In this document: piece after piece, positions 1,067-58,105 of the stretch | Layout: every line of letters begins with the position of its first letter | Numbering within the stretch: position 1 is the stretch's first letter | Source of the DNA: a virus | Lineage: Duplodnaviria; Caudoviricetes | IMG/VR virus record: IMGVR_UViG_3300028832_000100 | Length of the DNA stretch: 64,000 nt | Strand: one strand, 5' to 3' | Position numbers and translations under genes: made by a program | The notes under the pieces: model-generated | Told to the model about the DNA's origin: nothing | Seen by the model: only the letters and a program-made list of their open reading frames with translations | Databases searched by the model: none

Positions 1067-3280
1067 TTACAGCAATTCTCCCATGAAGTAATCAAGGTCG
1101 AATGCGGTAATGATGGGTACTTCGGTTTTGTCCCTTACGGTGCGCTTTACAAATCCGGTCACTTCATCAACTTCGGTTATGACTTCGTAAGGAGTCGTGG
1201 TGTCGTTGCTGAAAATGATGTCCGCTTGATTTCTGTCTTCTACGACATTCCCTCTTGCGATTGCATTCAACATAACGAGGTCATAAAGGTTCGGTTTGTT
1301 GATATTGACCATCGAATAGCAGGTAGCTGTAACGCCAGAGAGATTGCTTTCGAGATTGTTACCACCATAGTAGGATCTTTCCATAGAGTTGTTCATATCG
1401 CACCAGATGAACTTACGATCAACACAGTCAAAGATGACCGGGATCGCAACAGTAGCATCTGCTGTCAGGTCGATACTCATTTTTACAGTGGTAGGCTCAA
1501 AGATCTCACCGCTGTTTACATCTTCTCTTTCCATCCAACCAAAACGGCAGTTAGGGAGATCTCCGAACTTCTGTCTGGTAAAGTTATATACTTGATATAC
1601 AATGTATCGACCAGCATTCTTTTCAACGGCATCAATGTCAACATCAAGGAATTCAGCAACCCCTTCTCCATTCACACTTCCACCATTGGTGATATCTCCG
1701 GAATGACATGCTTTATACTTGGCAGAACGAAGATTCGTGTAAGAAACATGTTCAACATAATTCCAGTCTTCGTCATAGATGGCGGCAGAGAGGTCGATAT
1801 CAACTCTTTCGCCTCTATCAGTGTTTGTCCACCAGATAAATCCGCGAACCGCTTTCGCATTTTTATTGATCTTTATTTTGCTTCCTCTTACAATGGTTTT
1901 GTTGTATTTACTTGCGCTTCTCTGACTGAAAGGTACGAGATAGTCTTTGAAATTCCCGTCCACATAAACGTTTCCGAGAGACTCTTTTTTCTTGTACTGT
2001 TCGATCAAAGCATTGTTACAAATCCCGACGATTTTATTGCAAACATCCTCGGAGATTGCAGGGAGTTCATTCTTGATATACTTCGCTCTTGCCAAGTTCC
2101 CCTTGGGGAAGAATACCCTAATGGGCGCGTCAGAGGATGCTCTTCCAATGAAGTGCTGTCTCACCTGTAAAAGAACAGGGGTGGATACTTCATTTGCAAC
2201 GCTTTTGAAGTTCTCAACAATATAATCCGGATCAACAGCTTCTCTCACAACCTTATCGAGTTTTCTTGCAAATTCTCCGGGTCTGAGTTTGAGAAGTTCG
2301 GAAGCAACACGCATGTCTTTTTTAAGGATAGCATTTTGAACCTTACCACCAAACATGAGAGGCTTGTGTTCGTTGCGGAGGGTATTAAACGCCTTGTTGA
2401 TGTTGTTATACTTAGGGTACTTGTATTCACTCGGATGGAGAATCTCAGCGATTCTGATCCACTCATAGTGATATCTGAACAGATCTTCTGTAATATCGCC
2501 ACAACCTGCAAGAAGATTGAGGATCATTTTGCGTTCAGATCTCTTAAGGTTGCGATATTTTGTACTCGTTGCAAGGCTGATATCACCGTCAGACATTGCA
2601 GTGATGAGTCTCAGAACATCGGTCGCCGTTTTGAAATACTTTTTAATGTCATAACTCGATTTTACGGGTGCTTCTTCAATGATGAGCTTACCGATCAAAG
2701 CCACATTTTCCTTGAGAGGAATATCGTTAGGCAGGTAGTTACCATAGTCAGCGCACTCCTTAATAACAGTCTTGATATCCTCTTTATCCTGCTCAGACAA
2801 AGACGTTTTGCTCGATACAAGGTTCGAGAATACGCCCATAATATCTTCATATGTTCCCACAGAGAGGACATTGAACGAGCATTCATCGACGAGAGGGAGT
2901 CTCTCATCTTTTTCATACTCCGGCAGAACTTCTCCGAAAGTCCAGTAGTGGATAATCGCATTGACAAACAGTTCGACAAGGCTTGCTTCCATTACTTGAG
3001 TCGGGAAGTTGGGATACATAGGACTATACTGCACATCTGCCCCAACAAGCTTCTTCAGTTTCGGTACGAGTTCGGTATAGAACTTTCCAAACTCATCCCC
3101 AGAAAGGTGAGAAAGTGTTTCAAAGAGTTCTTTAGAGAAAGTGAACCCAAGAGATTGAATGTTTTTCAATCCCGACACAACGAGAGCTTTTTCCCTTTTG
3201 TCCTGTACATAGCTCTTGTCCTTGGGAGTGACAATAACCATGTGCTTTCTGCGGAGCAGTAATTCTTCTGTCTTTTTCAT
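1067..3280 (-). CDS. TROVE/ROT-like alpha-helical domain fused to a C-terminal TerD-like domain
   Basis: 737 aa. Helical N-terminal region with TATDVLRL and RPGEFARKLD. C-terminal RVDIDLSA...HSGDITNG...AEFLDVD are TerD-type motifs. GGAGG RBS. Confidence 0.7.
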   Translation of the reverse strand: MKKTEELLLRRKHMVIVTPKDKSYVQDKREKALVVSGLKNIQSLGFTFSKELFETLSHLSGDEFGKFYTELVPKLKKLVGADVQYSPMYPNFPTQVMEASLVELFVNAIIHYWTFGEVLPEYEKDERLPLVDECSFNVLSVGTYEDIMGVFSNLVSSKTSLSEQDKEDIKTVIKECADYGNYLPNDIPLKENVALIGKLIIEEAPVKSSYDIKKYFKTATDVLRLITAMSDGDISLATSTKYRNLKRSERKMILNLLAGCGDITEDLFRYHYEWIRIAEILHPSEYKYPKYNNINKAFNTLRNEHKPLMFGGKVQNAILKKDMRVASELLKLRPGEFARKLDKVVREAVDPDYIVENFKSVANEVSTPVLLQVRQHFIGRASSDAPIRVFFPKGNLARAKYIKNELPAISEDVCNKIVGICNNALIEQYKKKESLGNVYVDGNFKDYLVPFSQRSASKYNKTIVRGSKIKINKNAKAVRGFIWWTNTDRGERVDIDLSAAIYDEDWNYVEHVSYTNLRSAKYKACHSGDITNGGSVNGEGVAEFLDVDIDAVEKNAGRYIVYQVYNFTRQKFGDLPNCRFGWMEREDVNSGEIFEPTTVKMSIDLTADATVAIPVIFDCVDRKFIWCDMNNSMERSYYGGNNLESNLSGVTATCYSMVNINKPNLYDLVMLNAIARGNVVEDRNQADIIFSNDTTTPYEVITEVDEVTGFVKRTVRDKTEVPIITAFDLDYFMGELL

Positions 3281-4693: not shown

Positions 4694-4912
4694 TTATTTT
4701 GCCATATCCAGTCGGACGGATACACAGGGCTGACCATTATATTCACCATGTACTGTGTTGACAGATACTTTCCCATCCCCGAGATTTTTGTCAAAATCTT
4801 TTTGAAGTTCTTCTACTAAATTGAAGATCGGATTCTCTTGATACTTTTTGATTCTCTCTTTCATTTTAGCGATATCCTCATCGGTCATGCTGTTGATTTC
4901 CTCATTCATCAT
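4694..4912 (-). CDS. Hypothetical protein
   Basis: ORF trimmed to the ATG after AAGGA; the upstream part of the track ORF overlaps a tRNA and the ribozyme. Confidence 0.6.
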   Translation of the reverse strand: MMNEEINSMTDEDIAKMKERIKKYQENPIFNLVEELQKDFDKNLGDGKVSVNTVHGEYNGQPCVSVRLDMAK

Positions 4913-4946
4913 AACTATTTTTCCTTTTAGTAAAATAATAATATAC

Positions 4947-4996
4947 AAGGCATTAGTAAAAACATCGTCACCACGTGAAGGTTGCCTTATGACGAC
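4947..4996 (-). ncRNA. Minimal HDV-like (theta) ribozyme at the tRNA-Thr 3' end
   Basis: P1 GUCGUCA/UGACGAU (G+1.U), P2 AAGGCA/UGCCUU, P3 ACC-UUCACGU-GGU, CUAA J4/2; begins right after the tRNA discriminator base. Confidence 0.85.
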
Positions 4997-5069
4997 AGCT
5001 GGCGAAGGGAATTGAACCCCCAACCTGCTGATTACAGGTCAGCTGCACTGCCAGTTGTGCTACGCCAGC
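4997..5069 (-). tRNA. tRNA-Thr(TGT), no encoded CCA
   Basis: Cloverleaf, loop CC-TGT-AA (C33). Confidence 0.92.
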
Positions 5070-5274: not shown

Positions 5275-6459
5275 TCACAAAGTCAAACACTCAATATCTT
5301 CTGCATATTTTGTGCTCGATTTATATATACAACTAAATTCTGTGAATAAATCTTTGATTTTGCAATTTCCAAATATTTCCCCATCTGTGTAGTTAAGATG
5401 GGAAACGAAGACAGAGAACTTTATAGGAAAATCTTCACCGCATAAGGAATAAGCAAGTGATCTGTCACTGTTTACCCGACTCATAAACTCTTTCTTATCG
5501 AAATATCCATACCGAATTGATTTCTGATATTTATTATCAATATTGGTTGCGTCTTCGATTAAAGGGTTTATCTTATCTTTGTCACACTCTGTCGGAAATT
5601 CTCCCGCGCCGTGTCTTGTAAAATAGGATCTGGTAATGTAACAAACCTCAATGTCACAAGAACATTGTAACTCTTTAATGAGTTTTAACGGATTTTGAGA
5701 TGTAGTGTCACTCGCTGTAACATGGGGGTATGATTTCTTATTGTTTTCATCAAGAGCCAGTCCTTGTGCGCCTTCAAACACAATCGTATCGAAAGCTTCT
5801 GCGATATGTTGGAAATCAGCAATTTCAACAACCGATTGCATTTCTCTTATGTCTTGCAGAAAATGATGTCTCAACCTTTCAGATGATATGAGAACCTTGT
5901 ATTCGTCCGGAATACGATAAATTCCATAATACTTCAGACGGTTTGGGAGGTAGACATTTGCAATATCTGTGAGATACTCAAAGATCTCCTCATCTCTCAT
6001 TGAAAACAGCTTAGAAAGACGAAAAGAATAGTTCCCATCCTCATATCGTTTTTGAGTTTCCCAAACGCCATACCCACACGATCCATGCCTACTATCTCCT
6101 CTACTGTCTTCAACAATCCAGTTGATAAAAGCATCATACGGTGTTGTGACACGACAGTCCTTAGAAGCAAAGCATCTCGGACGAACGGGAAGAGTTATAT
6201 ACTCCCTGACAAACTCGGCAGGATATACCATGAAATTTTTATCAAAGTAGGTGGTAGCACCGGAGAATGTCCCACTACCAAAATGATGGAAAACGTGTCT
6301 CCAACCATTTTTGAGATCAACTGTATGTCCTCTCTGACTTCCACCGTTGAAAAGGACATTCAAACACTTACCGTCACTATTTGAAGAAAAGTAATTTGTA
6401 GCAAGACCTTTGCATTCATCCCCGTAGTTGCTACCAATCACTACTTTGATATGTTTCAT
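5275..6459 (-). CDS. Adenylosuccinate synthetase-like protein (divergent PurA family)
   Basis: YGDECKG, GGSQRGHTV, GSCGYG, FEGAQG and TRHGAG motifs. Confidence 0.85.
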   Translation of the reverse strand: MKHIKVVIGSNYGDECKGLATNYFSSNSDGKCLNVLFNGGSQRGHTVDLKNGWRHVFHHFGSGTFSGATTYFDKNFMVYPAEFVREYITLPVRPRCFASKDCRVTTPYDAFINWIVEDSRGDSRHGSCGYGVWETQKRYEDGNYSFRLSKLFSMRDEEIFEYLTDIANVYLPNRLKYYGIYRIPDEYKVLISSERLRHHFLQDIREMQSVVEIADFQHIAEAFDTIVFEGAQGLALDENNKKSYPHVTASDTTSQNPLKLIKELQCSCDIEVCYITRSYFTRHGAGEFPTECDKDKINPLIEDATNIDNKYQKSIRYGYFDKKEFMSRVNSDRSLAYSLCGEDFPIKFSVFVSHLNYTDGEIFGNCKIKDLFTEFSCIYKSSTKYAEDIECLTL

Positions 6460-6463
6460 AATA

Positions 6464-7351
6464 TCACCAAGAAATCTCCGAATTTGTATTTAAGGTCGTA
6501 GCTTCGTATTCTGTGTTATTGGCGCATTCCGATACAATAGAAACGATTGTAGAAGCGATGTTGTCAAGATTAACCACTTTCAAGTGATCAGAGTCAAGAT
6601 ATTTGCCGAATGTTTCCCGAATCACATCGTCAAATAGATAGTAACTGGTTGCTCTGTCATCAACCGCGAGATGATAAATGTCAAACTTCTCTGCCACTTC
6701 TTTATACAGATCCTTTGTCTCGACATCACCCTGCAGACTATCACCCGTGGCTGCTTCGAGTGTTTCTTTCGGAAGGTAAGGGTTAAGAGGTTCATCACCC
6801 ATCGTGATAATGATACCTTTCCGACCGCGATTCCAACAATCGAGCTTAGTATGTCTCAGTCCAAGATACCATGCGCCGGTGTACGATTCATAGCTGTTTC
6901 CACCGCCGCCACCTTCAAAATAGATCTTGTCGAGTTGTTCAGCAATACGAACATCGGATTCAAATTGAGATATTTGAAGGGGAGCACAGTCATAGGCGAG
7001 ATCCCCAATCCCCATAATCATAAACTCAACATCTGTAACCTTTTCGTAAAGTTTGGTCATTACCTCATTCAGTTTCTTGGCAACCTCTGCCGCTGCACTA
7101 CCCATACTGCCAGTAACATCGAGAGCAAGAATGACGGGGATAGTGTTCGGGTGTTCTTCCGTATCAAGGCACTCACGGATCACCCCGCGAGGGTTCAGTT
7201 CGGGTTGAAGTTTTGACGAAGTAAAGAGATCCTGTGCTGTGTAGTTTGAAGAAAGTGTGACTACTCCCTTGACAGGATCGTCAACAACGGATCGACCAAC
7301 AGAGGTTGAGTAGGCTGTATAAGAGGATGTCGTCCAAACGCCACTTCCCAT
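6464..7351 (-). CDS. vWA domain protein
   Basis: MIDAS ALDVTGSMG, GGGGGN..ESY, ITMGDE. Confidence 0.85.
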   Translation of the reverse strand: MGSGVWTTSSYTAYSTSVGRSVVDDPVKGVVTLSSNYTAQDLFTSSKLQPELNPRGVIRECLDTEEHPNTIPVILALDVTGSMGSAAAEVAKKLNEVMTKLYEKVTDVEFMIMGIGDLAYDCAPLQISQFESDVRIAEQLDKIYFEGGGGGNSYESYTGAWYLGLRHTKLDCWNRGRKGIIITMGDEPLNPYLPKETLEAATGDSLQGDVETKDLYKEVAEKFDIYHLAVDDRATSYYLFDDVIRETFGKYLDSDHLKVVNLDNIASTIVSIVSECANNTEYEATTLNTNSEISW

Positions 7352-7968
7352 TATTCTTCATCCTCCTTGACATCTTCGTTCTCTTCGACCTCATCGTCAT
7401 CAAGATCGAAGTCAAACATACCATCAAACATTTCAGAGAAATTGTTACCACCGAACATCATAAGCGGAAGAACAGAACCGAAACCGTTTGCATTGCTCGA
7501 AGACAATCCATCACCTGCATTGTTGCCGTTGAGCATCTGAGACATGAGCATATAAGACATCATCTTGTTCATGCCCTTCTTACCTTTCGTGAAGCTGTTG
7601 CCGAACATCGATACGATCTTCCCGTAGAAGTAGGTATTGCCCATAAATACATGACGCTCAGGCAAAATTTCCTTAACGGTGGAGTCTTCGTAGTCAATGA
7701 CCTTGATTGTGTCCTTCTCAACAGAGGTGACACACTTCGGTTTTCCGCTGACGAGAATGATATCTCCGGGCTCCACTTTATTGGTAGGAATCACAAAGAA
7801 GAATTCCTCCCCAATATTGAACACGAAGTTACTGCAGTTGGTCAGACGGTTGGTTTTAAGATTGTAGGTCTTATACCCACCACTTGTCTTGACAGCCAGT
7901 TCACCATTCATGGTGAGTCTGCACATACCGTTGGCAACCTTGCCAAACATACCGTTGAACATATTCAT
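7351..7968 (-). CDS. Hypothetical protein, translationally coupled to the vWA gene
   Basis: 205 aa, AAGGAG RBS, Met/Gly-rich region and acidic tail. Confidence 0.75.
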   Translation of the reverse strand: MNMFNGMFGKVANGMCRLTMNGELAVKTSGGYKTYNLKTNRLTNCSNFVFNIGEEFFFVIPTNKVEPGDIILVSGKPKCVTSVEKDTIKVIDYEDSTVKEILPERHVFMGNTYFYGKIVSMFGNSFTKGKKGMNKMMSYMLMSQMLNGNNAGDGLSSSNANGFGSVLPLMMFGGNNFSEMFDGMFDFDLDDDEVEENEDVKEDEE

Positions 7969-8018: not shown

Positions 8019-8113
8019 TGGTGCCCTCACTAGGACTCGAACCCAGATCGTCCTCACATCTAGAGGCAGTGCCGGGTTATAGAGCCGGAGTTCTACCATT
8101 GAACTACGAGGGC
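8019..8113 (-). tRNA. Atypical long-variable-arm tRNA (TAT/Ile in the standard register; CTA possible)
   Basis: Acceptor GCCCTCG/TGAGGGC, normal D and T arms, CCA; anticodon arm CCGG-CTCTATAAC-CCGG; about 25-nt extra arm. Confidence 0.75.
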
Positions 8114-9371: not shown

Positions 9372-10160
9372 TTAGTTATCCTCCAATACCACACAATTTA
9401 CTTTATGAGTCAAAGCAGTACAACCATCAAGAGCGATTATCCCATTATCCACAAATGGGTCAAAATTGGCATATCTATGCTCCGGGTTTGTACTATATTT
9501 GTTCGGGAACTCAACTCCATCACTGTGGAGTTTTGAGTGACCATAACTGGTATGCCAATGACCACAAACAACCATTTTCCCCTCTACTCTAACACCTTGA
9601 TACCACGCTTCCATTCCATTGATCCAGCGTGCGTACTCCCAGTTTCCATTACGCCAATCTTCAATGCTCGAATAGTTTATCTTTCTTGCATGATAGGGAT
9701 TTGGATCATCTGACTTACACGGGATCCATCCGTGAACGAAAACATACTTGGGTGTTTCATAGAAATCTACGCAAGACTTCCTATAGTCCTTCCACTGCTT
9801 CCACTTCTTAAACCATGTAAAATAATCAATGCCTTTTCCATGGATAATAGTTTTGTCATAATAACTGTCTACAACCGTTTGAAAAGTACCATTACTGAAA
9901 TCATAACTTAGGGCATCCATTCGATTCAGCATGGCATCCATGAGTGTTTCATGGTTTCCACAAATGAGAATCTTTTGGTCGGAAGGAATACTGTTTACAA
10001 ACCTTAAGCAGTCCACAGGTTGACTTCCTCTATCGAGAAGATCTCCGCATGACACAAAGATATGATCTGGATTATCTTTATCAAACCCAACTTCGTCTAA
10101 CGCCGATTTCATCTGGGTGTAAAAACCATGTACGTCACTTACTACGAAGTACTTTTTCAT
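9372..10160 (-). CDS. Calcineurin-like metallophosphoesterase
   Basis: SDVHG, GDLLDRG, GNHE, VHG, GHWH. Confidence 0.9.
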   Translation of the reverse strand: MKKYFVVSDVHGFYTQMKSALDEVGFDKDNPDHIFVSCGDLLDRGSQPVDCLRFVNSIPSDQKILICGNHETLMDAMLNRMDALSYDFSNGTFQTVVDSYYDKTIIHGKGIDYFTWFKKWKQWKDYRKSCVDFYETPKYVFVHGWIPCKSDDPNPYHARKINYSSIEDWRNGNWEYARWINGMEAWYQGVRVEGKMVVCGHWHTSYGHSKLHSDGVEFPNKYSTNPEHRYANFDPFVDNGIIALDGCTALTHKVNCVVLEDN

Positions 10161-10882: not shown

Positions 10883-13135
10883 TTAGTGATTCAGGAGATA
10901 TTCCCTCGATACATTCTTAAAGCTCTCCTGACCGTCGAGAGAACGGTACACAACCCCCTCACGCATAACAGACGGATTAACCTCAGAATTTCCATCGGCA
11001 AACTCCTTCATTTCCTCCATTGTATCCTTAGTTTTGTCTATTCCAAGAACAGGAACCCATTTCATTCCCCAGTCAAGAATAATTTCTCTTCCGTCAAGGC
11101 TGGAAAATCTTCCAAGTTTTGCCGTAATAAAATTGAAAATGTAAAGATCATCTTCTTTCAACTGTAAAGGGTTGCCTTGTACATTTCCGACAGATTCTCC
11201 CTGAATACACACCCATTTCTCATCGGGATGCTCAACCAGATACTTTTTCAAGTGATTCTCAATGGCATATTTTTTAGCCATCTCCCAATAAATGTTATAT
11301 CCATGGTAGCACGCCTGTTTTTCGTTTTCCTGTCTTACATTACGGGAGCAAACATAGAACTCAAATCTTCCAAACGGTTTTCTTTCGAGAACATAGGTAC
11401 TGGATGTGTTATGTGTGAGAACACCACATGCAAAATAGTTGTGGTTGTCTTCTACTTCCAAATCAAAAACATATTTTCTCCCGTAGTCTTCTATTTTATT
11501 CACACGAACTACAGTGGTTTCAACAATGCTTGAACCGTTCTCACATACATAATCAGACAGACAATATTTGATATTTCTATACCGGATAGGAAGCTTATAT
11601 TTCATCCCATCACAAATATATGGAGCAACCAACAGGCAGAATTTATCTGTGTTTTTTGTGTCAAGTGACAAAACATTCCCCTTATAAGAGTCCTTTGTGT
11701 TGAGTTTTGCCTCGATATCAAATTTATTTTTTAGAGCATCAATAAGGATATTACACTCGTATAAAGAGAAACTGTTTGTTGCGATGTATATTCTAGGTCT
11801 TAAATTATCGCTATCTGCATTATGAATACAACCATCATCCATATACCAAAACGCAAGTGAAATGGGTGTCAGACAATCACACCACTCCTTTGTAACTGTC
11901 TTTTTCTCACCGTCCCAGCATTTTCTGCACACATCCTCATGAATATCACCAGAAGATACATAGTGTGCCCGTAGCAATTCAGACCCATATCCTGATGTAG
12001 AATTTTTATATTTGTGACAATCATTACCAAGCAATCTTACGGTCTCATCAAAATACTCTTTTTGTTTAATGGAGTGATTGAAAGAGAATCCACCATTAAG
12101 AATACCGTGCTTTACAGAAAGAGAAGCATCACCAAGCAGTTTTCCTAATGCAATTTGTTTTGCTACTTCAGATGATATTTCTTTCCTGTGAAAAACCATG
12201 TCTCCAGCTTTTAATTCACAGGATGGGATATAATCTGTTCCGTTAAAAAATTTGTGGGTTGATGTACACTTAATGTGCTTTTCACGATTCCCACCAGATG
12301 TACCCATTTGTTTAACAACAACATCATACATATCGGAAACGCGCTTCCACTTGAAATATTGTTTGATGTCCTTGTACTCGCATCTTCCACTCTTCGTATT
12401 GTATGATAAAACTTGAACAGGCATCTTTTTATTAACAATTTCACTAATTTTGAAAATTCCACTGTTTGTAACAACTGATACATCGCGATCAAGACAGCCA
12501 TCTAACTTTTCTGTAAGAACGTAATCTTTGCCATTCCCAAGAACCCATGCCATATTTTCGACCCGTTCTTCGTCTGTCTTTTTAATAAACGACGGAAAAC
12601 CTCTTTTTTCCTTGTGCTTATTACGGAATAGTTTGGTGAGAATAGATCTTCCCCATTTTCTCTTCATAAGCCACTTGAAGATTCTCTTTTTGTAAATTTT
12701 CGGATGTCTTGCTTTCATAGAAGTCTCGAAGTCACTTCTGGTAGAATAATCTTTTCGATCGTTGTCTTCTCTCGTGTAGTATTTGATATTGAGAGCTTTT
12801 CCGACATCTTCCCCGAGTCTGTATTCGTCCAATTCGGGGAATGTCGAGCGATGGAAAACAAGTCCCTGCGAGGTAGTTCCGCCACACATCTTGATAGTCT
12901 TCACCCGGTAATTTCTCTTCTCCATGAAAGCAAAACGCTCATCTTCTTTAGGAACTTCCGAATCGTATTCGATGTAGATACATTCGTCACCTACTTTGAA
13001 TACATCTGCCTTGGAAACGATTGCTCTCCACCCATCATTGATGGTTGCCAATTCCACTCTATCATAGTTAGGAATAGGCTCAATTTTTGTAATTTTTGCA
13101 ATATATGCAAGTGATCTTTCTTCGTTAATAATCAT
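10883..13135 (-). CDS. RNA ligase (Rnl2/DRB0094-like) containing an intein
   Basis: N-terminal OB-like domain, KTDEER, TEKLDG, CSRN, IQGE, REGVV, SFKNVS. Confidence 0.88.
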   Translation of the reverse strand: MIINEERSLAYIAKITKIEPIPNYDRVELATINDGWRAIVSKADVFKVGDECIYIEYDSEVPKEDERFAFMEKRNYRVKTIKMCGGTTSQGLVFHRSTFPELDEYRLGEDVGKALNIKYYTREDNDRKDYSTRSDFETSMKARHPKIYKKRIFKWLMKRKWGRSILTKLFRNKHKEKRGFPSFIKKTDEERVENMAWVLGNGKDYVLTEKLDGCLDRDVSVVTNSGIFKISEIVNKKMPVQVLSYNTKSGRCEYKDIKQYFKWKRVSDMYDVVVKQMGTSGGNREKHIKCTSTHKFFNGTDYIPSCELKAGDMVFHRKEISSEVAKQIALGKLLGDASLSVKHGILNGGFSFNHSIKQKEYFDETVRLLGNDCHKYKNSTSGYGSELLRAHYVSSGDIHEDVCRKCWDGEKKTVTKEWCDCLTPISLAFWYMDDGCIHNADSDNLRPRIYIATNSFSLYECNILIDALKNKFDIEAKLNTKDSYKGNVLSLDTKNTDKFCLLVAPYICDGMKYKLPIRYRNIKYCLSDYVCENGSSIVETTVVRVNKIEDYGRKYVFDLEVEDNHNYFACGVLTHNTSSTYVLERKPFGRFEFYVCSRNVRQENEKQACYHGYNIYWEMAKKYAIENHLKKYLVEHPDEKWVCIQGESVGNVQGNPLQLKEDDLYIFNFITAKLGRFSSLDGREIILDWGMKWVPVLGIDKTKDTMEEMKEFADGNSEVNPSVMREGVVYRSLDGQESFKNVSREYLLNH
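11408..12496 (-). mobile_element. Intein (363 aa) with LAGLIDADG endonuclease
   Basis: KLDG|CLDRD...LGKLLGDAS...AFWYMDDG...VFDLEVEDNHNYFACGVLTHN|T. Confidence 0.92.
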
Positions 13136-18237: not shown

Positions 18238-19020
18238 TCATACCTCCACGAGTTTATCGATGTATTGTCTTCCGTCACCCTTGAAAATGGGAATATCGTT
18301 ATCAATTTCCCATCTACTTCTACCAGTGTTTTCATCCACAACACGAATACAGCAACTGCCTCGCTTCATCGTTGTTGGATAATTATTCCAGTTAATACTT
18401 TTCTGAAGCATGAGCATATCTTGAATATCCTTACAGGACTTTCCGTGCAATTCCTTCGGTGAAAAGTTTGCGTGACCAACCATTTCAATGGAATTTCTTG
18501 TAGCATCGTTTTGTCGCCACAAAATGTTGTTACACACCTCCTCTTGAGGAATGTTAAAGCATCTTGCATCAAACATTGCACCTTTATCCTGTGCTCTTGT
18601 CAAACACTTAATATACTCTGCACCGGCTGCACCGTATATAGCTTTGAGATCCGATACATCGTTAGTAAATGCCTTATTGAAAGCCATCGTAGCCATACTC
18701 GCAGCCACACTTGCGCATTTCTGAATGTTATAATCAAACCAAGAGCTGGTTTCAAGTTTCTTATAATCTACGAGCACGAGAGTGATTTCGTCGGATTGTG
18801 TGTATCCAAGAACACACCCTTGAATATTTTCGCAGAGATATTTCATGGTTTCTTGCATGGTACTTACAAGAACCATGTCAAAAGGCTTCTTAAAACCTTT
18901 TGTAAAGGTATGAAATGCCTTACCATCAATTCTGATGATGACAGGCATTCTCGGAATAAGGTGAGTCCTTGTAATATACTCGTATTTCTTCATTCTATCG
19001 CCAAGAGAATCATTTATCAT
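18238..19020 (-). CDS. tRNA(His) guanylyltransferase Thg1-like protein
   Basis: LGDRMKKYE, RIDGKAFHTFT, YTQSDEI, FDAR, WRQNDATRNS. Confidence 0.92.
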   Translation of the reverse strand: MINDSLGDRMKKYEYITRTHLIPRMPVIIRIDGKAFHTFTKGFKKPFDMVLVSTMQETMKYLCENIQGCVLGYTQSDEITLVLVDYKKLETSSWFDYNIQKCASVAASMATMAFNKAFTNDVSDLKAIYGAAGAEYIKCLTRAQDKGAMFDARCFNIPQEEVCNNILWRQNDATRNSIEMVGHANFSPKELHGKSCKDIQDMLMLQKSINWNNYPTTMKRGSCCIRVVDENTGRSRWEIDNDIPIFKGDGRQYIDKLVEV

Positions 19021-19168
19021 TTTCACAAAATACCCCTTTCTGGCAGTGACCACTCGCAGAAACCTCCTCTTCCCATTTCCAACACACATATTTGGAAGAG
19101 TTCACATCATACTCGCACCAAGAGCAGTTCTTACATTTACACTCGACTGGTATACATTGATTGCTCAT
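19010..19168 (-). CDS. Small Cys-rich protein (52 aa, below the ORF-track cutoff)
   Basis: MSNQCIPVECKCKNCSWCEYD...CWKW...HCQKG, GAGGG RBS. Confidence 0.6.
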   Translation of the reverse strand: MSNQCIPVECKCKNCSWCEYDVNSSKYVCWKWEEEVSASGHCQKGVFCENDK

Positions 19169-19719: not shown

Positions 19720-20400
19720 TTACTTTTCGTATTTTTGTTTTAATCCGATATATTCGTCAAGAGAAATCTCTTTCATTTCTCCATCAAACTCGTGGAAATA
19801 TTTTGCAAAAGGAATTGGATTTTCATTATTTTTCTGAATGGAAGTAATTTTGATGGTGTCGAAATCACCATTCGTATCATCAAGTAACTCTTCAACAACC
19901 GTTACCTTGTATTTATCAATTCCGTCGTAAGGAAGCGTGATGGGGAACAATTTGTCAACAAATCTTGTAGCCATGCCACAATAAAAGGGAGTTCTCTTTC
20001 CTTCCTCATAGCAAACAACTCTATCTACATCTGTATAGGTTATTTTACCGTCAAGACTCTCTTCCCTGAATAGGTGTGGCATTCGTGAACACTGAATGCT
20101 TGATTTTAATCCCATTTTTGTAAGCCATTTCGGGTTTTCTTCTGGAAGATTTACACCGGCAATCTGCTCTTCAAAATCTTTTTCTGTGATCGGGCTGAGA
20201 GGCATACCATCAATCAATCTATCCAGAATATCTTTAGTAATCCCAATAGACATTCCAGAATGACCGTCTTCCATCAAGCAGTTATATGCCTTCAAAGCAG
20301 AATCAAGACAAAGCCCATAATACTCATCGTTATTTACCTTCTTTGCGATCTCCACTTCATTTTCAGCCCACGATCTCATATTCATATTATTCATCCCCAC
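19720..20400 (-). CDS. Conserved phage hypothetical protein
   Basis: EDGHSGMS...PLSPIT...QCSRM...FPITLPY. Confidence 0.75.
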   Translation of the reverse strand: MGMNNMNMRSWAENEVEIAKKVNNDEYYGLCLDSALKAYNCLMEDGHSGMSIGITKDILDRLIDGMPLSPITEKDFEEQIAGVNLPEENPKWLTKMGLKSSIQCSRMPHLFREESLDGKITYTDVDRVVCYEEGKRTPFYCGMATRFVDKLFPITLPYDGIDKYKVTVVEELLDDTNGDFDTIKITSIQKNNENPIPFAKYFHEFDGEMKEISLDEYIGLKQKYEK

Positions 20401-20845
20401 TTAATATATCGTTAGCCCAGTCAAGTTCTTCTTGAGTGGCATATCTCACAAATTCTGCTTCGTCGGAACGCATCCACGACCACACGCTGCCAAATTCCAT
20501 ATCAATCACACCATAATTGTCATCGCTCTCTGCTCTCACTATATAAAGATGATTGTTTTTTCTCCATCTAACAATGGGTACATGATCTCCCTGCAGACTG
20601 TATACATTTTCATAATACGGTAGATATTCCTTCAAATCTACCCCTCTTACAAATCCCAGCACCCAGTAATATTTTTTTGCCGTGCTCGACATCATTAACG
20701 TATTTTCACTACCGTAAGCAAAAATACAGTCTTTGCCCAAACAAGATTTATTTTTTTCCAACAGCTCATCCAACGTTTCGCATGTGTATTCCTCTGGGTC
20801 GGCACCACTAATGTATGCAGGAATATGTTGCTTATACTTGATCAT
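20387..20845 (-). CDS. Hypothetical protein
   Basis: ORF with GAGG RBS. Confidence 0.65.
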   Translation of the reverse strand: MIKYKQHIPAYISGADPEEYTCETLDELLEKNKSCLGKDCIFAYGSENTLMMSSTAKKYYWVLGFVRGVDLKEYLPYYENVYSLQGDHVPIVRWRKNNHLYIVRAESDDNYGVIDMEFGSVWSWMRSDEAEFVRYATQEELDWANDILSGDE

Positions 20846-21081
20846 ACGATTGTTACCTCTTTCGTTTCGTAAATGTCGAAGTTATCTCTGTTACCACTAT
20901 CCGTATACACAAGATAACGAAAATCATCAAGCCACATAGAATCTTTTCCAATTTCTCCGCGAGATCTACTCTCCATGAACTTTTTAGAATCTTCCAAATT
21001 CTTGTATGCTTCTTGGCTAACATGGAAACTTCTGATCCCGTCGCAATATCTTTCAATGTAAACGACCCAACAATTATTCAT
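20842..21081 (-). CDS. Hypothetical protein
   Basis: AAGGAG RBS; ATGA overlap with the next gene. Confidence 0.6.
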   Translation of the reverse strand: MNNCWVVYIERYCDGIRSFHVSQEAYKNLEDSKKFMESRSRGEIGKDSMWLDDFRYLVYTDSGNRDNFDIYETKEVTIV

Positions 21082-21100
21082 TTAATATACTCCTTATCTG

Positions 21101-21517
21101 TTAGTATTCACTCAAATCAATTGTTTCTAATTCCATAACTCTTTTGCTGATGCCTAAATTGTTCCAATTCGATTTGTAGCGTCCTTGTAGCTCAATAACT
21201 CTGGAATTATATTCGTTTACTTCTTGCAAAATAATACTCTTATTAGTGGTATACAGCTCGCTGTTTCCATTCAAAACTTCTTCAATGGATTCTTTTTGTT
21301 TCAACAGACCGTCTACCTCTACGCTACTACTGAACTTACAACAAAAGTGACACGAGATCAAAATTGTTAGAACAACTACAAATGTAATAAGAATCAACCC
21401 AAAAATCATACGTGGGATATCAACATCTTTATAGGTATTCTTATCTACAACAACAGTAATAATGGTTCCTACAAGCCCGATGAAAGCCAAAACTCCGAAA
21501 ACAATAAACCAATACAT
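21101..21517 (-). CDS. Membrane protein (2 TM)
   Basis: Two hydrophobic N-terminal segments. Confidence 0.7.
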   Translation of the reverse strand: MYWFIVFGVLAFIGLVGTIITVVVDKNTYKDVDIPRMIFGLILITFVVVLTILISCHFCCKFSSSVEVDGLLKQKESIEEVLNGNSELYTTNKSIILQEVNEYNSRVIELQGRYKSNWNNLGISKRVMELETIDLSEY

Positions 21518-21522
21518 AATTT

Positions 21523-22053
21523 TTACTCCTTAAATTTAATTCTTTTAATCTGGCAACTTTCCATGACAGAAAGTGCTTGCTCGTGTTTCTCAACCGTAGT
21601 TCCGGCACACAGATCCTCGTAAACATAGATTGGTGTTTCCGGGAAAATAGTCTTTAAGAGCAACGCATTTGTAATCACACAAATATCTGTGCAAAGTCCA
21701 CAGATGTAAATTTCGTCGTCTTTTTTGATGCCATAATCTCCCCAATCAAGCGTACCAAATGTGTGCTTATCAATAGCAGTTACATGGGAGGGATTGGAAA
21801 GAATAGCCTCTGCGACTTCTTGCGGAAAGAAATATCCGTCCGTGTTATCAATGCAATGCTTAATAGGTAAATTTTTTCCTTCCTGTGTCTCTAAATATGT
21901 TTCGTCATCGTGACAGTCAAAGGTCAGAATGATCTCCCCGTCAAAATTCCCGATCAAGTTGGAAATGGGATTAACAATTTTTTCCGCTTCCTTATTGGCA
22001 AGACTTCCTGTAATGAAGTCTTTTTGAAAATCAATAATACATAAATATTTCAT
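21523..22053 (-). CDS. Nicotinamidase/isochorismatase-family cysteine hydrolase
   Basis: IDFQKDF, D.H, HC, K, GLCTDICV. Confidence 0.9.
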   Translation of the reverse strand: MKYLCIIDFQKDFITGSLANKEAEKIVNPISNLIGNFDGEIILTFDCHDDETYLETQEGKNLPIKHCIDNTDGYFFPQEVAEAILSNPSHVTAIDKHTFGTLDWGDYGIKKDDEIYICGLCTDICVITNALLLKTIFPETPIYVYEDLCAGTTVEKHEQALSVMESCQIKRIKFKE

Positions 22054-22054
22054 G

Positions 22055-22402
22055 TCATACCTCTTTCCAATTATTTCTCTGAATGATTCTCCTCATATTC
22101 TCAACACCGACTGGATTCATGGAATGGATATGAAATTCATATGGAAAATAGTCGGTTTCTTCTAACCAATCCAATAGCTTTATATAATCCCCACCGTCAA
22201 CTGCATAATCGCCAGCATCATGGTCAAGATCTATCAATACAGGATTGTATAAAAACTCCATGTAAAGTTTTCTGTTGTTATTTTCAATCAGGGATCTTTT
22301 TACACTCTCTAACTTTTCAATAACATCCTTTATTTCGTTTACGCTCCTACACCAAACATATCCTTCTGGTGCCGGGCGCATATCATCAACCCAAATCTTC
22401 AT
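22055..22402 (-). CDS. Cyclic-phosphate-processing receiver domain protein
   Basis: KIWVDDMRPAP, LDHDAG, HSMNPVG. Confidence 0.8.
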   Translation of the reverse strand: MKIWVDDMRPAPEGYVWCRSVNEIKDVIEKLESVKRSLIENNNRKLYMEFLYNPVLIDLDHDAGDYAVDGGDYIKLLDWLEETDYFPYEFHIHSMNPVGVENMRRIIQRNNWKEV

Positions 22403-28819: not shown

Positions 28820-28870
28820 ACAAAAAGAAAAGTTGCTAAACTCGACCCATTAAGATCAAATTTAGCAACT
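28820..28870 (-). terminator. Riboswitch expression-platform terminator
   Basis: AGUUGCUAAAU...GUUUAGCAACU-UUUCUUUUU, overlapping the aptamer 3' end. Confidence 0.8.
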
Positions 28871-28953
28871 GACAATCATTACTCCATACAAGAAGTTTTA
28901 GACTCTTAAGTTTTGCGACACACTCTTTCGAGTGCTGTGCCTTTATTATTTTG
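28857..28953 (-). promoter_or_regulatory. c-di-GMP-I (GEMM) riboswitch
   Basis: AAAGGCACAGCACUC-GAAA-GAGUGUGUCGCAAAAC...GUCUAA...AUGAUUGUCAGUUGC matches the GEMM architecture. Confidence 0.82.
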
Positions 28954-28976: not shown

Positions 28977-29189
28977 TTAATCAGAAATTCTTTTAATCTC
29001 TCTCTGAATATACCAAATTGCTTTTTCAAGATCCTGCTTTTTATTTCCCTTATGCTCACAACGAGAAATATACTTGACAGCATTTCCGAGATTGTAATTA
29101 AGATTCCATCCCTCTATAACATCTATTGTTTCGTATTTTCCGTATGTATAGTGGGATGGGTGATTTACTTGGTCTTTATTTTCATCCAT
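28977..29189 (-). CDS. DUF3310 protein
   Basis: VNHPSHY...GNAVKYISR...DLEKAIWY. Confidence 0.9.
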   Translation of the reverse strand: MDENKDQVNHPSHYTYGKYETIDVIEGWNLNYNLGNAVKYISRCEHKGNKKQDLEKAIWYIQREIKRISD

Positions 29190-32100
29190 TATTTTTGACC
29201 TCTTAATTCAATGAATTTCTTTATTTCTGACACACCAGCATATTTATCTTCTCCAATAAGTAGAGTTGGTGCTTGCTTTATGTTATGCTCTTGAACGAAC
29301 TCTTTATTTTCGTTTGCATAAAATTTCTTATAGGTAATACCGCTCTTATCCAATAAAGCACAAGCTATCTTACAATTCGGACATGTAGGCGTTGCAATTA
29401 GTATGATTTCCCCATTTTCTACATGAGTTGAATTCGGCTCATCTATATTGCATAAATCGCACTGTTCATATTCTTCTTTTTTGTGCAATATGCTGTTTGT
29501 TATATCGTAGGTTTTCCTATCCTTAAATTCTTGTGCTTTTCCATCATTCCAATTCTGCACTGGGCGATAATATCCCGTTATTCTGCTATATACTTCCGTA
29601 GGTTCTCCGCAATATGGACAAACGGATTGCTCACCAGACAAATATCCGTGTTTCTTGCAAACAGAGTATGTAGGTGACATTGTATAATAAGGAAGTTTAT
29701 AATTCTCTGCTATCTTTCTAACTAAGTTAGCAGCTGCTTTCCAATCCGGAAGTTTTTCACCGAGGAAGGCATGAAAGACCGTGCCAGATGTATAAAGTGT
29801 TTGTAGTTCGTCCTGAATATCAAGTGCAGAAAAAATGTCATCTGTATATCCAACAGGAAGATGAGAAGAGTTTGTATAGTAAGGAACTCCGCTACTCATA
29901 GAGGCGGTTATTATACTTGGATACTTTTCTACATCATGCTTTGCAAGTCTGTATGATGTTGACTCTGCTGGCGTTGCTTCAAGATTATAAAGATCGCCAT
30001 ATTCTTCCTGATAGTCCGAAAGCCGTTCTCTCATGTGGTTTAGAACATTGATTGTAAATTCTTGAGATTCCTTGTTTGTAAGATCTTTTTTCAACCAACA
30101 AGCATTAAGGCATGCTTCGTTCATACCGACTAACCCGATTGTTGAAAAATGATTATTTAATGTACCCAAATACCGTTTGGTGTATGGATAAAGACCTGCT
30201 TCAAGTAGTTTAGTGATGACGGTACGTTTGACTTTCAGCGAACGCGCCGCGATATCCATCATCTTGTCGAGCCGTTCGTAGAACTCGGTTTCGTCTTTTG
30301 AGAGATAAGCAATTCGTGGCATATTGATCGTGACCACGCCGACAGAGCCGGTGCTTTCGCCACTTCCGAAGAAGCCGCCCGATTTCTTACGCAGTTCGCG
30401 CAGATCCAGACGCAGACGGCAACACATGGAACGAACGTCGCTCGGCTCCATATCGCTGTTGATGTAGTTTGAGAAATAAGGCGTACCGTATTTTGCTGTC
30501 ATTTCAAACAGCAGTTTGTTGTTCTCGGTTTCAGACCAATCGAAACCTCTTGTTATTGAATAAGTAGGTCATTTTTACCCTCGGTTTCCCGATATTTATT
30601 AGGGGATTAGACTATATCATCATCTTGCTTTGCAAGATGTGTGGCACTTCGATTTAAGGGGTTTTCACCCAGCAAGCATCTCATCTTGCCCCTACTCCTA
30701 ATGGGGAATTACACCCCCAAAATGGGATAGTCGTTTGAGTTTGTATAATAAATCATTTCCAAGTGTTTTTTAATAGTATATCTCTTATAGTAGCTGCTGA
30801 AACACCATATTTTTTACCAATTTTATAATATGGTGCATATTTGCCTCTATGTTTGATTTCTTCCACTTGTGCATATGTTAATTTTGCGTTGTAGTGATTT
30901 TCTCCTTTTTTACGCAAACCAATATCATAAGCATGCTTATTATTTTCAGAATAAGAAACAATTTCTAAATTGGAAACACAATTATTCTTTTTGTTTCCAT
31001 CTTTATGATTAACAGTATCTCCTAATTCATCCAAAAATGCATTGGCAACAAGTTTGTGTATGTAAAAATTTTTTCTTCTGTGTCCATCTCTTAAGCTCAC
31101 ATAATAATAACCATTTTTGCATTCACATTTGGAGAGAATCCTCTCTTTAAGGATCATTCCATTTTTACTGCCATTTTCTACATGCCTTTGAAGGCTCTTT
31201 ACCTCTCCGCTATCACTTATTTTATAAAGACCTTCATAACCACATATGTCTTTCCACATAATAATCACCTCCAATAAAAATTGAAAATGATTTATTATAC
31301 CTTACCACAGGATTCCCATGCTACTATTTGTAGTTTAGAGTCCCCTGTTAGCACGATTCTTTATCACAATTTTCTGTGAATACTGTTTGTGAATCGCACA
31401 CCCAGCATTTACTGGTTCACCACATTTTCATAATACATCACTGCATTATGCCACAACTACTTCTATGGGGTATTGGAAACCTCTGCCATTAGCGTCGCCC
31501 TCGATCATGATCTCGATGAACGCCTTGTTCACCATATCCATTTCTTTCTTGCAGTCTTTGTACTTGAAGTCCATCTCCTTGCCGCCCACGATGGCGTTGA
31601 GCTCCGCCAGATCAGAAGGAACCGTCCAGTCGAGAGTGATGTTGGTGAACGGTGCTTGAGTACCCCAACGAGAAGGAGTATTCACACCATATACAAAGGA
31701 CTGGATGCACTGCTTGACTTCCTTATAGGAAAGGTTGTCCACCTTGACGAACGGCGCGAGATAGGTATCGAACGAGGAGAACGCCTGCGCGCCCGCCCAT
31801 TCGTTCTGCATGATGCCGAGGAAGTTGACCATCTGGTTGCAGAGCGTAGATAAATGGCTTGCAGGAGATGATGTAATCTTTCCGAGCACACCCCCAAGTC
31901 CTTCTTGAATAAGTTGCTTCAAAGACCAACCAGCACAATATGGTGCAAGCATTGATAAATCATGTATATGAATATCTGCATTTCTGTGTGCGTTTGCAAC
32001 CTCATCATCATAAACTTCGGAAAGCCAATAATTGGCTGTAACTGCCCCAGAATTTGATAAGATCAATCCACCTAATGAATAAGAAACAGTAGAATTTTCC

Positions 32101-32483
32101 TTTACACGCCAATCGCTCACTTTAAGATAGCTGTCTACAACTTTCTTATAATTTATTAAAGTATCTTCTGTTTCTCGAACCTTTTGATGTTGATACCTGT
32201 ATTTAATATAATGTTTAGCAAGATTATACTTGTTAAGTCTTATAAGTTCGTTCTCTATAATATCTTGTATCTCTTCTACAGATAAATCTATTATCTGGTC
32301 ATTAGAAATATCAATTACCGCTCTCTCTGCAATTCTTCCTTGAATTGATTTAATTAGTTTTGTAAAACTCGCTCCTTCTACTCGATCTTCTTCATCTACA
32401 TCTTTGTTTGCTTCCTCTAAACACTTTTTTATTTTTTCAATATTAAAGTCTTGTAGAGTGCCATCTCTTTTGATAACTTTCAT
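29189..32483 (-). CDS. nrdD: Anaerobic ribonucleoside-triphosphate reductase (ATP cone, C-terminal glutaredoxin-like domain); exons 31465-32483 and 29189-30569
   Basis: MCCRL, ATPAES, YSRITGY, CPNC; splicing restores GRGFQYPI|PTYSIT. Confidence 0.93.
30570..31464 (-). mobile_element. Group I intron in nrdD
   Basis: 5' exon ends in U (CCCAU) paired to GUGG; AAGUAG/CUACUU P10; GAUAUAGUC core; terminal G. Confidence 0.92.
30753..31274 (-). CDS. NUMOD4-HNH homing endonuclease (intron-encoded)
   Basis: WKDICGYEGLYKISDSG, IHKLVA, VNHKDGNKKNN..SNLE. Confidence 0.9.
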   Translation of the reverse strand: MEVIIMWKDICGYEGLYKISDSGEVKSLQRHVENGSKNGMILKERILSKCECKNGYYYVSLRDGHRRKNFYIHKLVANAFLDELGDTVNHKDGNKKNNCVSNLEIVSYSENNKHAYDIGLRKKGENHYNAKLTYAQVEEIKHRGKYAPYYKIGKKYGVSAATIRDILLKNTWK

Positions 32484-57290: not shown

Positions 57291-58105
57291 CAATAATACC
57301 TCGTAGGTCTTTCAGCGGTTGGTGCTGTCGTACTCATCGGTACTTCCCACGGCTTTGCACCTGTCATCGGAATGTCATTTGGTGCAAATTGCGGTTGTGC
57401 GGGAGTTGGAATTGGCGCAGGTTGAGGCGCAACAGGCTGACTATAATCTCTCTGATATGCAGGCGTTGTAGCAGGTGCGCTTCCCTGTGGCGTTTGATTG
57501 TTCTTAGCAGGGAATGAACCGGTTTCCAAAAAAGTGTTCATCTCCTGTGCGTTCTTATTGAGTACATGGGAATTGAGAATAGAGAACCCATCGAAAGCAT
57601 TAGGAATATTCGGGTAATACTGCTCTGGATAGTTTGCAGGAACACAGTAATTGATGCTGTATGTTGTCTTCATGTCACCAGGCGCACCATTTCTCTTAAT
57701 CTTGAAAAGATTTTGGGAAAGAGGACCGTACTCTGTAATCTTATTGTAGAGGTCGTCCGCAAACCATGCAGGTCTTTCCCATACCTTAGGTGTGGGAACA
57801 ATCGTCCCATTTTCTGATTTTACATACTCAATGAGGTGTACAAAGATTCTTGTCATAAGTTTAACATTCTTTGCACAAAGCGGACAGGTTTCTACGGGAT
57901 CTTTCGGATCTCTGATGCAGTTCACATTCCGAAACTTTCCACCGATGTTGACGCTGTGCACAACAGCAATGTCAAACGAATCGGGTGTGTCGTGCATAAA
58001 CCTAACAACCGCCTCATCATTGTTGTTTTTCAAAGAAAAAAATCCAACCCCTGTATTAGATCCATTTGAATTTCTTTGAATTTCACCATACGAAATTTGT
58101 GCCAT
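57290..58105 (-). CDS. Single-stranded DNA-binding protein (gp32-like)
   Basis: FFSLK...VVRF...H...C...CPLC; P/Q-rich tail. Confidence 0.75.
   Translation of the reverse strand: MAQISYGEIQRNSNGSNTGVGFFSLKNNNDEAVVRFMHDTPDSFDIAVVHSVNIGGKFRNVNCIRDPKDPVETCPLCAKNVKLMTRIFVHLIEYVKSENGTIVPTPKVWERPAWFADDLYNKITEYGPLSQNLFKIKRNGAPGDMKTTYSINYCVPANYPEQYYPNIPNAFDGFSILNSHVLNKNAQEMNTFLETGSFPAKNNQTPQGSAPATTPAYQRDYSQPVAPQPAPIPTPAQPQFAPNDIPMTGAKPWEVPMSTTAPTAERPTRYY

Follow-up and report, generated by a model that had tools for sequence, protein, structure and literature searches.

The 64,000-nt stretch of Caudoviricetes DNA analyzed here (IMG/VR record IMGVR_UViG_3300028832_000100, referred to at its full length as the window) carries on its minus strand a gene for tRNA-Thr(UGU), and the 51 nt that follow this gene very probably form a minimal self-cleaving ribozyme of the theta type, a hepatitis delta virus (HDV)-like fold lacking the P4 stem, which would be co-transcribed with the tRNA. 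Theta ribozymes are tRNA-associated minimal HDV-like ribozymes of gut Caudoviricetes that provide an RNA-only means of trimming the 3′ trailers of phage tRNAs (Kienbeck et al. 2024, PMC10879173). Four tRNA/theta pairs self-cleave in vitro, and a C-to-U change inactivates them (PMC10879173). Judged from its sequence and from its relatives, the window element is almost certainly a genuine member of this class, and self-cleavage between U4997 and G4996 is highly likely.

Architecture of the element and its position after tRNA-Thr

Both strands of the window were scanned with a descriptor that specifies structure only, and a single element of 51 nt was recovered, at positions 4996-4946 of the minus strand. 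Read from 5′ to 3′, it is parsed into P1 (GTCGTC), J1/2 (A), P2 (TAAGGCA), P3 (ACC), three fields of L3 (T, TC and ACGT), P3′ (GGT), P1′ (GACGAT), P1.1′ (GT), L4 (TTTTA), J4/2 (CTAA) and P2′ (TGCCTTG), with the coordinates collected in Table 1. The 7-bp P2 stem is made of six Watson-Crick pairs and one G·U pair, and P1.1 consists of the C4977-G4963 pair and a U4978·U4962 mismatch. Within L3, U4979 and G4974 match the U20·G25 pair of the HDV and CPEB3 ribozymes (numbering from PMC4836649). An initial annotation of this DNA had described a 50-nt nested pseudoknot with all HDV elements. The pseudoknot stands, but the length does not, because the 50-nt figure leaves out the terminal P2 pair U4989·G4946, and neither does the full set of HDV elements, given the U·U mismatch in P1.1 and the absence of P4, the latter following from the definition of the minimal form. 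The cut that the same annotation had placed between U4997 and G4996 agrees with the position of G1 in the parse.

Table 1. Coordinates of the tRNA, the predicted ribozyme and the genes considered as its downstream or healing partners
Feature	Position	Strand	Basis and remarks
tRNA-Thr(UGU)	4997-5069	minus	ARAGORN and Rfam tRNA (63.2 bits); discriminator U4997; without encoded CCA
Predicted scissile phosphate	4996-4997	minus	From the position of G1 in the parse; U4997 would receive a 2′,3′-cyclic phosphate and G4996 (G1) a 5′-OH
P1, 5′ strand GUCGUC	4991-4996	minus	Descriptor parse; 6-bp P1 with G1·U4964 wobble
J1/2, single A	4990	minus	Descriptor parse
P2, 5′ strand UAAGGCA	4983-4989	minus	Descriptor parse
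P3, 5′ strand ACC	4980-4982	minus	Descriptor parse; pairing in relatives
L3, UUCACGU	4973-4979	minus	Contains the 5′ strand of P1.1 (U4978 and C4977)
P3, 3′ strand GGU	4970-4972	minus	Descriptor parse; pairing in relatives
P1, 3′ strand GACGAU	4964-4969	minus	Parse, covariance model and pairing in relatives
P1.1, 3′ strand GU	4962-4963	minus	G4963 pairs with C4977; U4962 faces U4978 (mismatch)
L4, UUUUA	4957-4961	minus	Descriptor parse; in place of P4
J4/2, CUAA	4953-4956	minus	Descriptor parse; candidate catalytic C4956
P2, 3′ strand UGCCUUG	4946-4952	minus	Descriptor parse; tRNA-selected relatives
72-aa open reading frame (ORF)	4694-4912	minus	Sequence read; no family match; ribosome-binding site starts about 20 nt after ribozyme P2
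Pnk-HD fusion, 308 aa	14989-15915	minus	Polynucleotide 5′-kinase and HD phosphohydrolase; best healing candidate
Calcineurin-type metallophosphoesterase	9372-10160	minus	Pfam Metallophos; second candidate for opening or removing the cyclic phosphate
DRB0094-family RNA ligase	10883-13135	minus	Pfam (PHA02142 OB-fold and RNA_ligase); TIGR02306, E 1.4e-26; split by a LAGLIDADG intein
cREC protein, predicted cyclic-phosphate-processing receiver	22055-22402	minus	PF20274, E 6e-19; last-ranked candidate

The element begins directly after the discriminator nucleotide, at a distance of 0 from the tRNA 3′ end, and the criterion used for theta ribozymes is a cleavage site ≤5 nt from that end (PMC10879173). 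Of the published tRNA-associated theta matches, 77% are no more than 1 nt from the tRNA end, and encoded CCA is found in only 4.5% of those tRNAs (PMC10879173). When the 3′ ends of all nine tRNAs of the window were read, U4997 was found to be followed by GUCGUC and not by CCA, whereas the other eight tRNAs encode CCA. The earlier statement that tRNA-Thr is the sole CCA-less tRNA is therefore borne out within the window. The tRNA itself is an ordinary Thr tRNA and not a suppressor, and no sign of stop-codon recoding was seen in the window.

The anticodon loop of tRNA-Thr, CCUGUAA, carries a C at position 33, where U is usual and where the closest relative, in the contig L010, has U33. Another tRNA of the window, 95 nt in length (8019-8113, minus strand), combines a long extra arm with an oversized anticodon loop (CUCUAUAAC), for which reason its assignment by ARAGORN as Ile(UAU) is doubtful. 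The window as a whole is phage-like, with replication genes, nine tRNAs and homing elements, and the nearest GenBank phage record, which comes from human faeces, shows 66% identity with 27% of the query covered.

The layout shares with theta ribozymes a 6-bp P1, a 1-nt J1/2 (1-3 nt in the accessible part of the published list; PMC10879173), a 7-bp P2, a P3 of ACC/GGU, an L3 of the form U-NC-NCGU, a short L4 in place of P4, a J4/2 of CUAA, and a G1 located immediately after the discriminator of a phage tRNA without CCA. Published theta entry 1782 has the same ACC, T, TC, ACGT and GGT fields and the same CTAA, and the same 5-nt L4 occurs among the published theta sequences. The minimal metagenomic HDV-like ribozymes termed drz-Mtgn, which provided the starting motif for the theta descriptor (ref 18 of PMC10879173), resemble the window element in their P4-less HDV fold and in their occurrence in human-microbiome sequences, a comparison made by description only; they are described without a tRNA context.

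Conservation in IMG/VR and the status of the U·U mismatch in P1.1

Relatives of the element were collected from IMG/VR with a pattern that fixed only P3, L3, the GU after P1′ and CUAA, which returned 55 stretches; leaving the P1.1 partner free gave only 18 further ones. A G1, a perfect P1 and a P2 with at least six of its seven pairs were found together in 29 of the 43 unique contexts containing the 13-nt core, compared with a mean of 0.03 when the 5′ strand was shuffled. To avoid circular selection, a separate set (n = 30) was chosen on the sole condition that a tRNA 3′ end lay 10-22 nt upstream of P3. In this tRNA-selected set, P1 was perfect in all 30 contexts and P2 had at least six of seven pairs in 29, values that fell to 3% and 6%, respectively, in chimeras wherein the 5′ half of one element was joined to the 3′ half of another.

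A covariance model trained on the elements of five other phages, with the window left out, aligned with the entire window element at a score of 50.6 bits (E ~9e-10, the calibration being rough), and the runner-up in the window reached 13.5 bits (E 0.44). MAFFT alone misaligned the ragged 5′ ends, and the model was built from a gap-free alignment of the five sequences; P2 was assessed by a separate parse. When 41 distinct sequences were aligned under the guidance of the model, pairing in P1 and P3 together came to 99.7%, and 105 cells were doubly changed; this pairing was reached in 0 of 500 shuffles, and no slid register came near it. Taken separately, P1 is 99.6% paired, with compensatory changes in five of its six pairs, P3 is 100% paired, and the G1·U pair is present in 39 of the 41 sequences. 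The alignment leans toward the structure because it was fitted to it, a bias from which the tRNA-selected set is free.

The relatives are also consistent with the window element in their genomic position and in their catalytic nucleotide. G1 lies ≤2 nt from a tRNA 3′ end in 26 of 31 related elements, most commonly that of tRNA-Thr(UGU). A decoy scan that allowed A, G or U at the catalytic position, pooled with the earlier matches, yielded at least 126 unique core contexts. Among the matches listed, 34 of these are well formed with C and one is well formed solely with another base, so that C is retained in 34 of 35 well-formed copies. Decoys of this kind are the control logic of the theta paper as well (PMC10879173). 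A chance origin of the 4996-4946 element is excluded. The identity given by the initial annotation, a theta-type minimal HDV-like ribozyme placed right after the discriminator of a CCA-less tRNA, thus finds support in covariation, in tRNA adjacency and in the conserved catalytic C.

The covariance model also detected, in the IMG/VR loci L032, L016, L009, L006 and L041, a second theta-type element within a few kilobases of the first, and the core differs in some of these cases. It is therefore common for one tRNA cluster to hold several theta ribozymes.

Several observations weigh against a functional theta ribozyme at this site. No HDV-type Rfam family matched the element at the gathering score or at E values up to 10, a null result that is expected and uninformative because the Rfam HDV models include P4, which the element does not possess. 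Nested minimum free energy folding of 57 nt gave no signal (z = -0.47) and predicted a competing AAGG/CCUU hairpin; the folding null is likewise expected and counts neither way, because the proposed structure is a double pseudoknot. In a separate nested fold, the tRNA and the ribozyme occupy distinct domains. The same tRNA end could in principle be produced by host RNase Z. Lastly, the element departs at two sites from the ~130 most abundant sequences in the accessible part of the published theta list. Its P1.1 (TC/GT) holds a single Watson-Crick pair, whereas all of those sequences have two standard or wobble pairs (CC/GG, TC/GA, GC/GC or TC/GG), and position 2 of its P1 is a U in a U-A pair, whereas theirs is a purine paired with a pyrimidine, with GG or GA starts.

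The P1.1 departure raises the alternative that the element is a decayed and inactive theta relic, disabled by the U·U mismatch, and that host RNase Z or another nuclease makes the 3′ end of tRNA-Thr. That only one standard pair remains in P1.1, where every sequence compared in the accessible part of the published list has two, speaks for this alternative. Among 32 unique well-formed IMG/VR elements that share this exact core, however, the two bases after P1′ are GU in 26, GA in three and GG in one, with the remaining two rows parsed ambiguously as TG and no other mismatch type present. As the majority state, U·U is the norm for this L3 and not the product of random decay. The U·U copies, moreover, show full covariation of P1 and P2, and the catalytic C is retained in the proportion given above for the matches listed. 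At position 2 of P1, U-A or C-G pairs occur in 11 of the 41 natural relatives. The mammalian CPEB3 ribozyme, an accepted HDV-like ribozyme whose P1.1 is formed by one G-C and one U-U pair, is active (PMC4836649). We therefore consider a relic very unlikely.

In both the CPEB3 ribozyme and the window element, P1 opens with a G1·U pair and J4/2 with the catalytic or candidate catalytic C, and the CPEB3 numbering (U20, C22, A23 and G25; PMC4836649) fits the L3 sequence UUCACGU. Unlike the window element, CPEB3 has a full P4 hairpin, is located within a mammalian intron and is unconnected with any tRNA. To judge by the numbering, its L3 is probably identical to that of the window element. The window element is an example of the known theta class that combines a CPEB3-like P1.1 with a pyrimidine at position 2. 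The accessible text of the published theta supplement contains none of eight words drawn from U·U-type elements, six from P2 and two from L4 (TTAAA and TAGTAA). As far as that part of the source extends, the published descriptor probably misses the U·U subclass and a pyrimidine at position 2, and the motif would accordingly under-count such ribozymes.

Fate of the two predicted cleavage products

In the mechanism that we infer, which comprises the cleavage, the nature of the ends and the identity of the healer, the RNA would fold into a nested double pseudoknot with P1 and P2 as the outer and P3 and P1.1 as the inner helices. C4956 in J4/2 and a bound Mg2+ would then catalyze attack of the U4997 2′-OH on the phosphate between U4997 and G4996. 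The tRNA would be freed at its discriminator with a 2′,3′-cyclic phosphate, and the ribozyme, carrying a 5′-OH, would remain on the 5′ end of the downstream mRNA that contains the 72-aa ORF. The cyclic phosphate would have to be opened and removed by a phosphoesterase, for which the Pnk-HD fusion and the metallophosphoesterase of the phage, as well as host enzymes, are candidates, after which a CCA-adding enzyme would build the acceptor end. A Pfam scan of 48 window ORFs revealed no CCA-adding enzyme, and this activity is for that reason presumably supplied by the host or encoded elsewhere in the phage.

That HDV-type cleavage leaves a 2′,3′-cyclic phosphate, as the initial annotation had stated, is established chemistry: an HDV-cut tRNA bears this end and is unusable until it is treated with T4 PNK (PMC12381190). 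The engineered tRNA-HDV fusions of that study resemble the window arrangement in that the ribozyme directly follows the tRNA, the cyclic phosphate is blocking and a kinase-phosphatase removes the block. They differ in that they are artificial, use the full-size HDV ribozyme and already encode CCA, whereas the window tRNA would need CCA to be added after healing.

The Pnk-HD fusion is the strongest candidate for this healing step. Its kinase half matches AAA_33 in Pfam (E 9e-20) and bacterial Pnkp in NCBIfam (E 1e-14), and its top Foldseek matches are C. thermocellum Pnk (CthPnk), T4 PNK and mammalian PNKP. The P-loop (G9-K15), D35 and R38 are invariant in 28 homologs, as are H180, H208-D209, H229 and H265 of the HD motif. 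The Pfam HD match itself (E 6e-4) falls just under the curated cut-off. Residues 179-285, which include an HDxGK motif, best match the HD region of CCA tRNA nucleotidyltransferase (E 1.9e-6), and the isolated HD domain gives weak Foldseek matches to PhnZ/TmpB, the HD region of the A-adding enzyme and YhaM (E 2e-3 to 1e-1, TM ~0.56). The HD domain of E. coli Cca removes 2′,3′-cyclic phosphates from tRNA (PMC6961547). The window fusion has an HD domain that resembles the one in CCA enzymes but is without the nucleotidyltransferase domain. Runella HD-Pnk combines a 2′,3′-phosphoesterase with a kinase (PMC6097658), in a domain order that is the reverse of the window fusion, where the kinase precedes the HD domain.

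The metallophosphoesterase is weakly similar to the phosphatase portion of bacterial Pnkp and also matches PHROG 8238 ("RNA ligase", 737 positions) at profile positions 172-275. It closes a ligase-kinase-phosphoesterase run (13135-9372) that comprises the DRB0094 ligase, an AAA_28 kinase and this Pnkp-like metallophosphoesterase. The same ligase is split around a GIY-YIG endonuclease gene in one relative (L076) and is uninterrupted in another (L074). A Thg1-like 3′-5′ nucleotidyltransferase is also encoded (18238-19089, minus strand; PHROG 4717, E 9e-95), and ARAGORN found no tRNA-His in the window. For the cREC protein, the role in cyclic-phosphate processing is a prediction only (PMC7824862). 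Its gene belongs to a minus-strand cluster (19720-22402) with an anti-Thoeris Tad3 homolog (19720-20400) and an isochorismatase/nicotinamidase-like protein (21523-22053), a composition that suggests an NAD/ADP-ribose counter-defense cluster. Because its neighbors point to conflict over NAD/ADP-ribose, cREC is the weaker healing candidate.

Phage-encoded healing of the ribozyme-cut tRNA-Thr is a plausible but tentative reading of these genes, to which we give somewhat less than an even chance. Nothing ties the Pnk-HD fusion or the metallophosphoesterase to tRNA-Thr rather than to the repair of nuclease-cut tRNAs. We consider it nearly an even chance that the ribozyme is real but that the RNA-repair genes (the Pnk-HD fusion, metallophosphoesterase, kinase, DRB0094 ligase and Thg1-like enzyme) constitute a heal-and-seal kit directed against host anticodon/tRNA nucleases, with tRNA-Thr healed by the host or incidentally. 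Together these genes mirror the kinase, phosphatase and ligase activities of T4 Pnkp/Rnl and of bacterial Pnkp, kits of this sort are the classic answer to host anticodon nucleases and have been described as counter-defense in large phages (PMC7824862), and the cREC gene sits in an NAD/Thoeris setting. A kinase-domain match is present in 14 of 19 theta-bearing IMG/VR records, but it represents the full Pnk-HD fusion in just two of them and the kinase domain only in the other 12. The Pnk-HD protein gave no match in any of five convenience controls, which were mostly incomplete and unrelated records; this co-occurrence test lends no support and does not separate the two roles, because it is too small and phylogenetically confounded. 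A kit serving repair alone fits less well with the strong enrichment in theta-bearing phages of the DRB0094 ligase family found in the window (140-fold) and of the CCA-adding enzyme (250-fold; PMC10879173). It also leaves aside the resemblance of the HD domain to that of CCA-adding enzymes, the E. coli version of which clears cyclic phosphates from tRNA (PMC6961547). Healing of tRNA-Thr and a counter-nuclease role are not exclusive.

The other predicted product, the mRNA downstream of the ribozyme, brings in a further alternative, in which the selected function lies mainly on the mRNA side, with the cut separating the upstream PurA-like mRNA and the tRNA from the downstream mRNA, on which it leaves a structured 5′-OH end, or in which the unit is a mobile self-contained cassette. 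The unit stands between protein genes, and the short distance from P2 to the next ribosome-binding site (Table 1) means that cleavage would at the same time generate the 5′ end of the mRNA for the 72-aa ORF, which has no Pfam or PHROG match. The nearest relative of the tRNA-ribozyme unit, in the 233-kb IMG/VR contig L010, has 84% identity to it, with the similarity spanning the tRNA and the ribozyme and ending there, and shows a compensatory change in P1 (GTCCTC/GAGGAT, compared with GTCGTC/GACGAT in the window). The loci of PurA-like homologs (up to 64% identity) keep the upstream three-gene block that ends in the PurA-like gene but have no tRNA or theta element there, and no orthologous copy of the exact locus was present among those compared; no related loci were found in viral contigs for the upstream PurA-like protein. 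The tRNA-ribozyme pair therefore appears to be a discrete unit, since the similarity to L010 is confined to it and it is absent at the locus of the relatives. We nonetheless judge a mainly mRNA-side or mobile role unlikely. The constant partner of the ribozyme is a tRNA 3′ end and not a downstream ORF, and such a role would supplement tRNA trimming without replacing it.

The three-gene block (5275-7968, minus strand; L074-L078) encodes proteins of ~200 and ~290 aa and a divergent adenylosuccinate-synthetase-like protein. It is kept in many large phage-like contigs, and the synthetase homologs number 2193 at E ≤1e-20.

Other features of the window and implications of the predicted tRNA cleavage

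The anaerobic ribonucleotide reductase NrdD is distributed over two minus-strand ORFs, of which 31446-32483 covers profile positions 1-207 and 29189-30502 covers positions 231-562. The ~940 nt between them hold a 173-aa ORF (30753-31274), and the split looks like an intron or homing-element insertion unflagged by Rfam. A group I intron (55660-55906, minus strand; Rfam, 70.8 bits) lies at the end of a family A DNA polymerase ORF (55893-57293). Since this ORF extends through the exonuclease domain but no further than the start of the polymerase domain, the polymerase gene appears to be split by an intron. A c-di-GMP-I riboswitch aptamer (28861-28951, minus strand; 65.6 bits) is also located within the phage window. 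A 737-aa protein (1067-3280, minus strand) has no Pfam match and matches NCBIfam NF041916 (MXAN_6230/SCO0854 RING-domain family) with an E value of 8e-122, below the curated cut-off.

The tRNA-ribozyme unit recurs in phage contexts that are unrelated in other respects, and the nearest relatives lack it at this locus. A ribozyme-cut tRNA would end in a 2′,3′-cyclic phosphate that blocks CCA addition, a consequence left undiscussed in the theta paper, which makes no mention of the terms cyclic, kinase or phosphatase (PMC10879173). A need for end healing may also underlie the enrichment of theta phages in RNA ligase and CCA-adding genes, and because plausible healers are encoded in the window, a handful of recombinant proteins would suffice to test this point directly. 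The most far-reaching reading, that elements with a U·U P1.1 form a distinct and widespread theta subclass whose cutting is coupled to phage-encoded Pnk-HD healing, we regard as distinctly improbable. If it were true, the tRNA would leave the ribozyme inert, as a 2′,3′-cyclic phosphate, and would become chargeable only once the phage enzyme had been made. The phage would thereby control the timing of tRNA-Thr use, or would shield the 3′ end of this tRNA until then.

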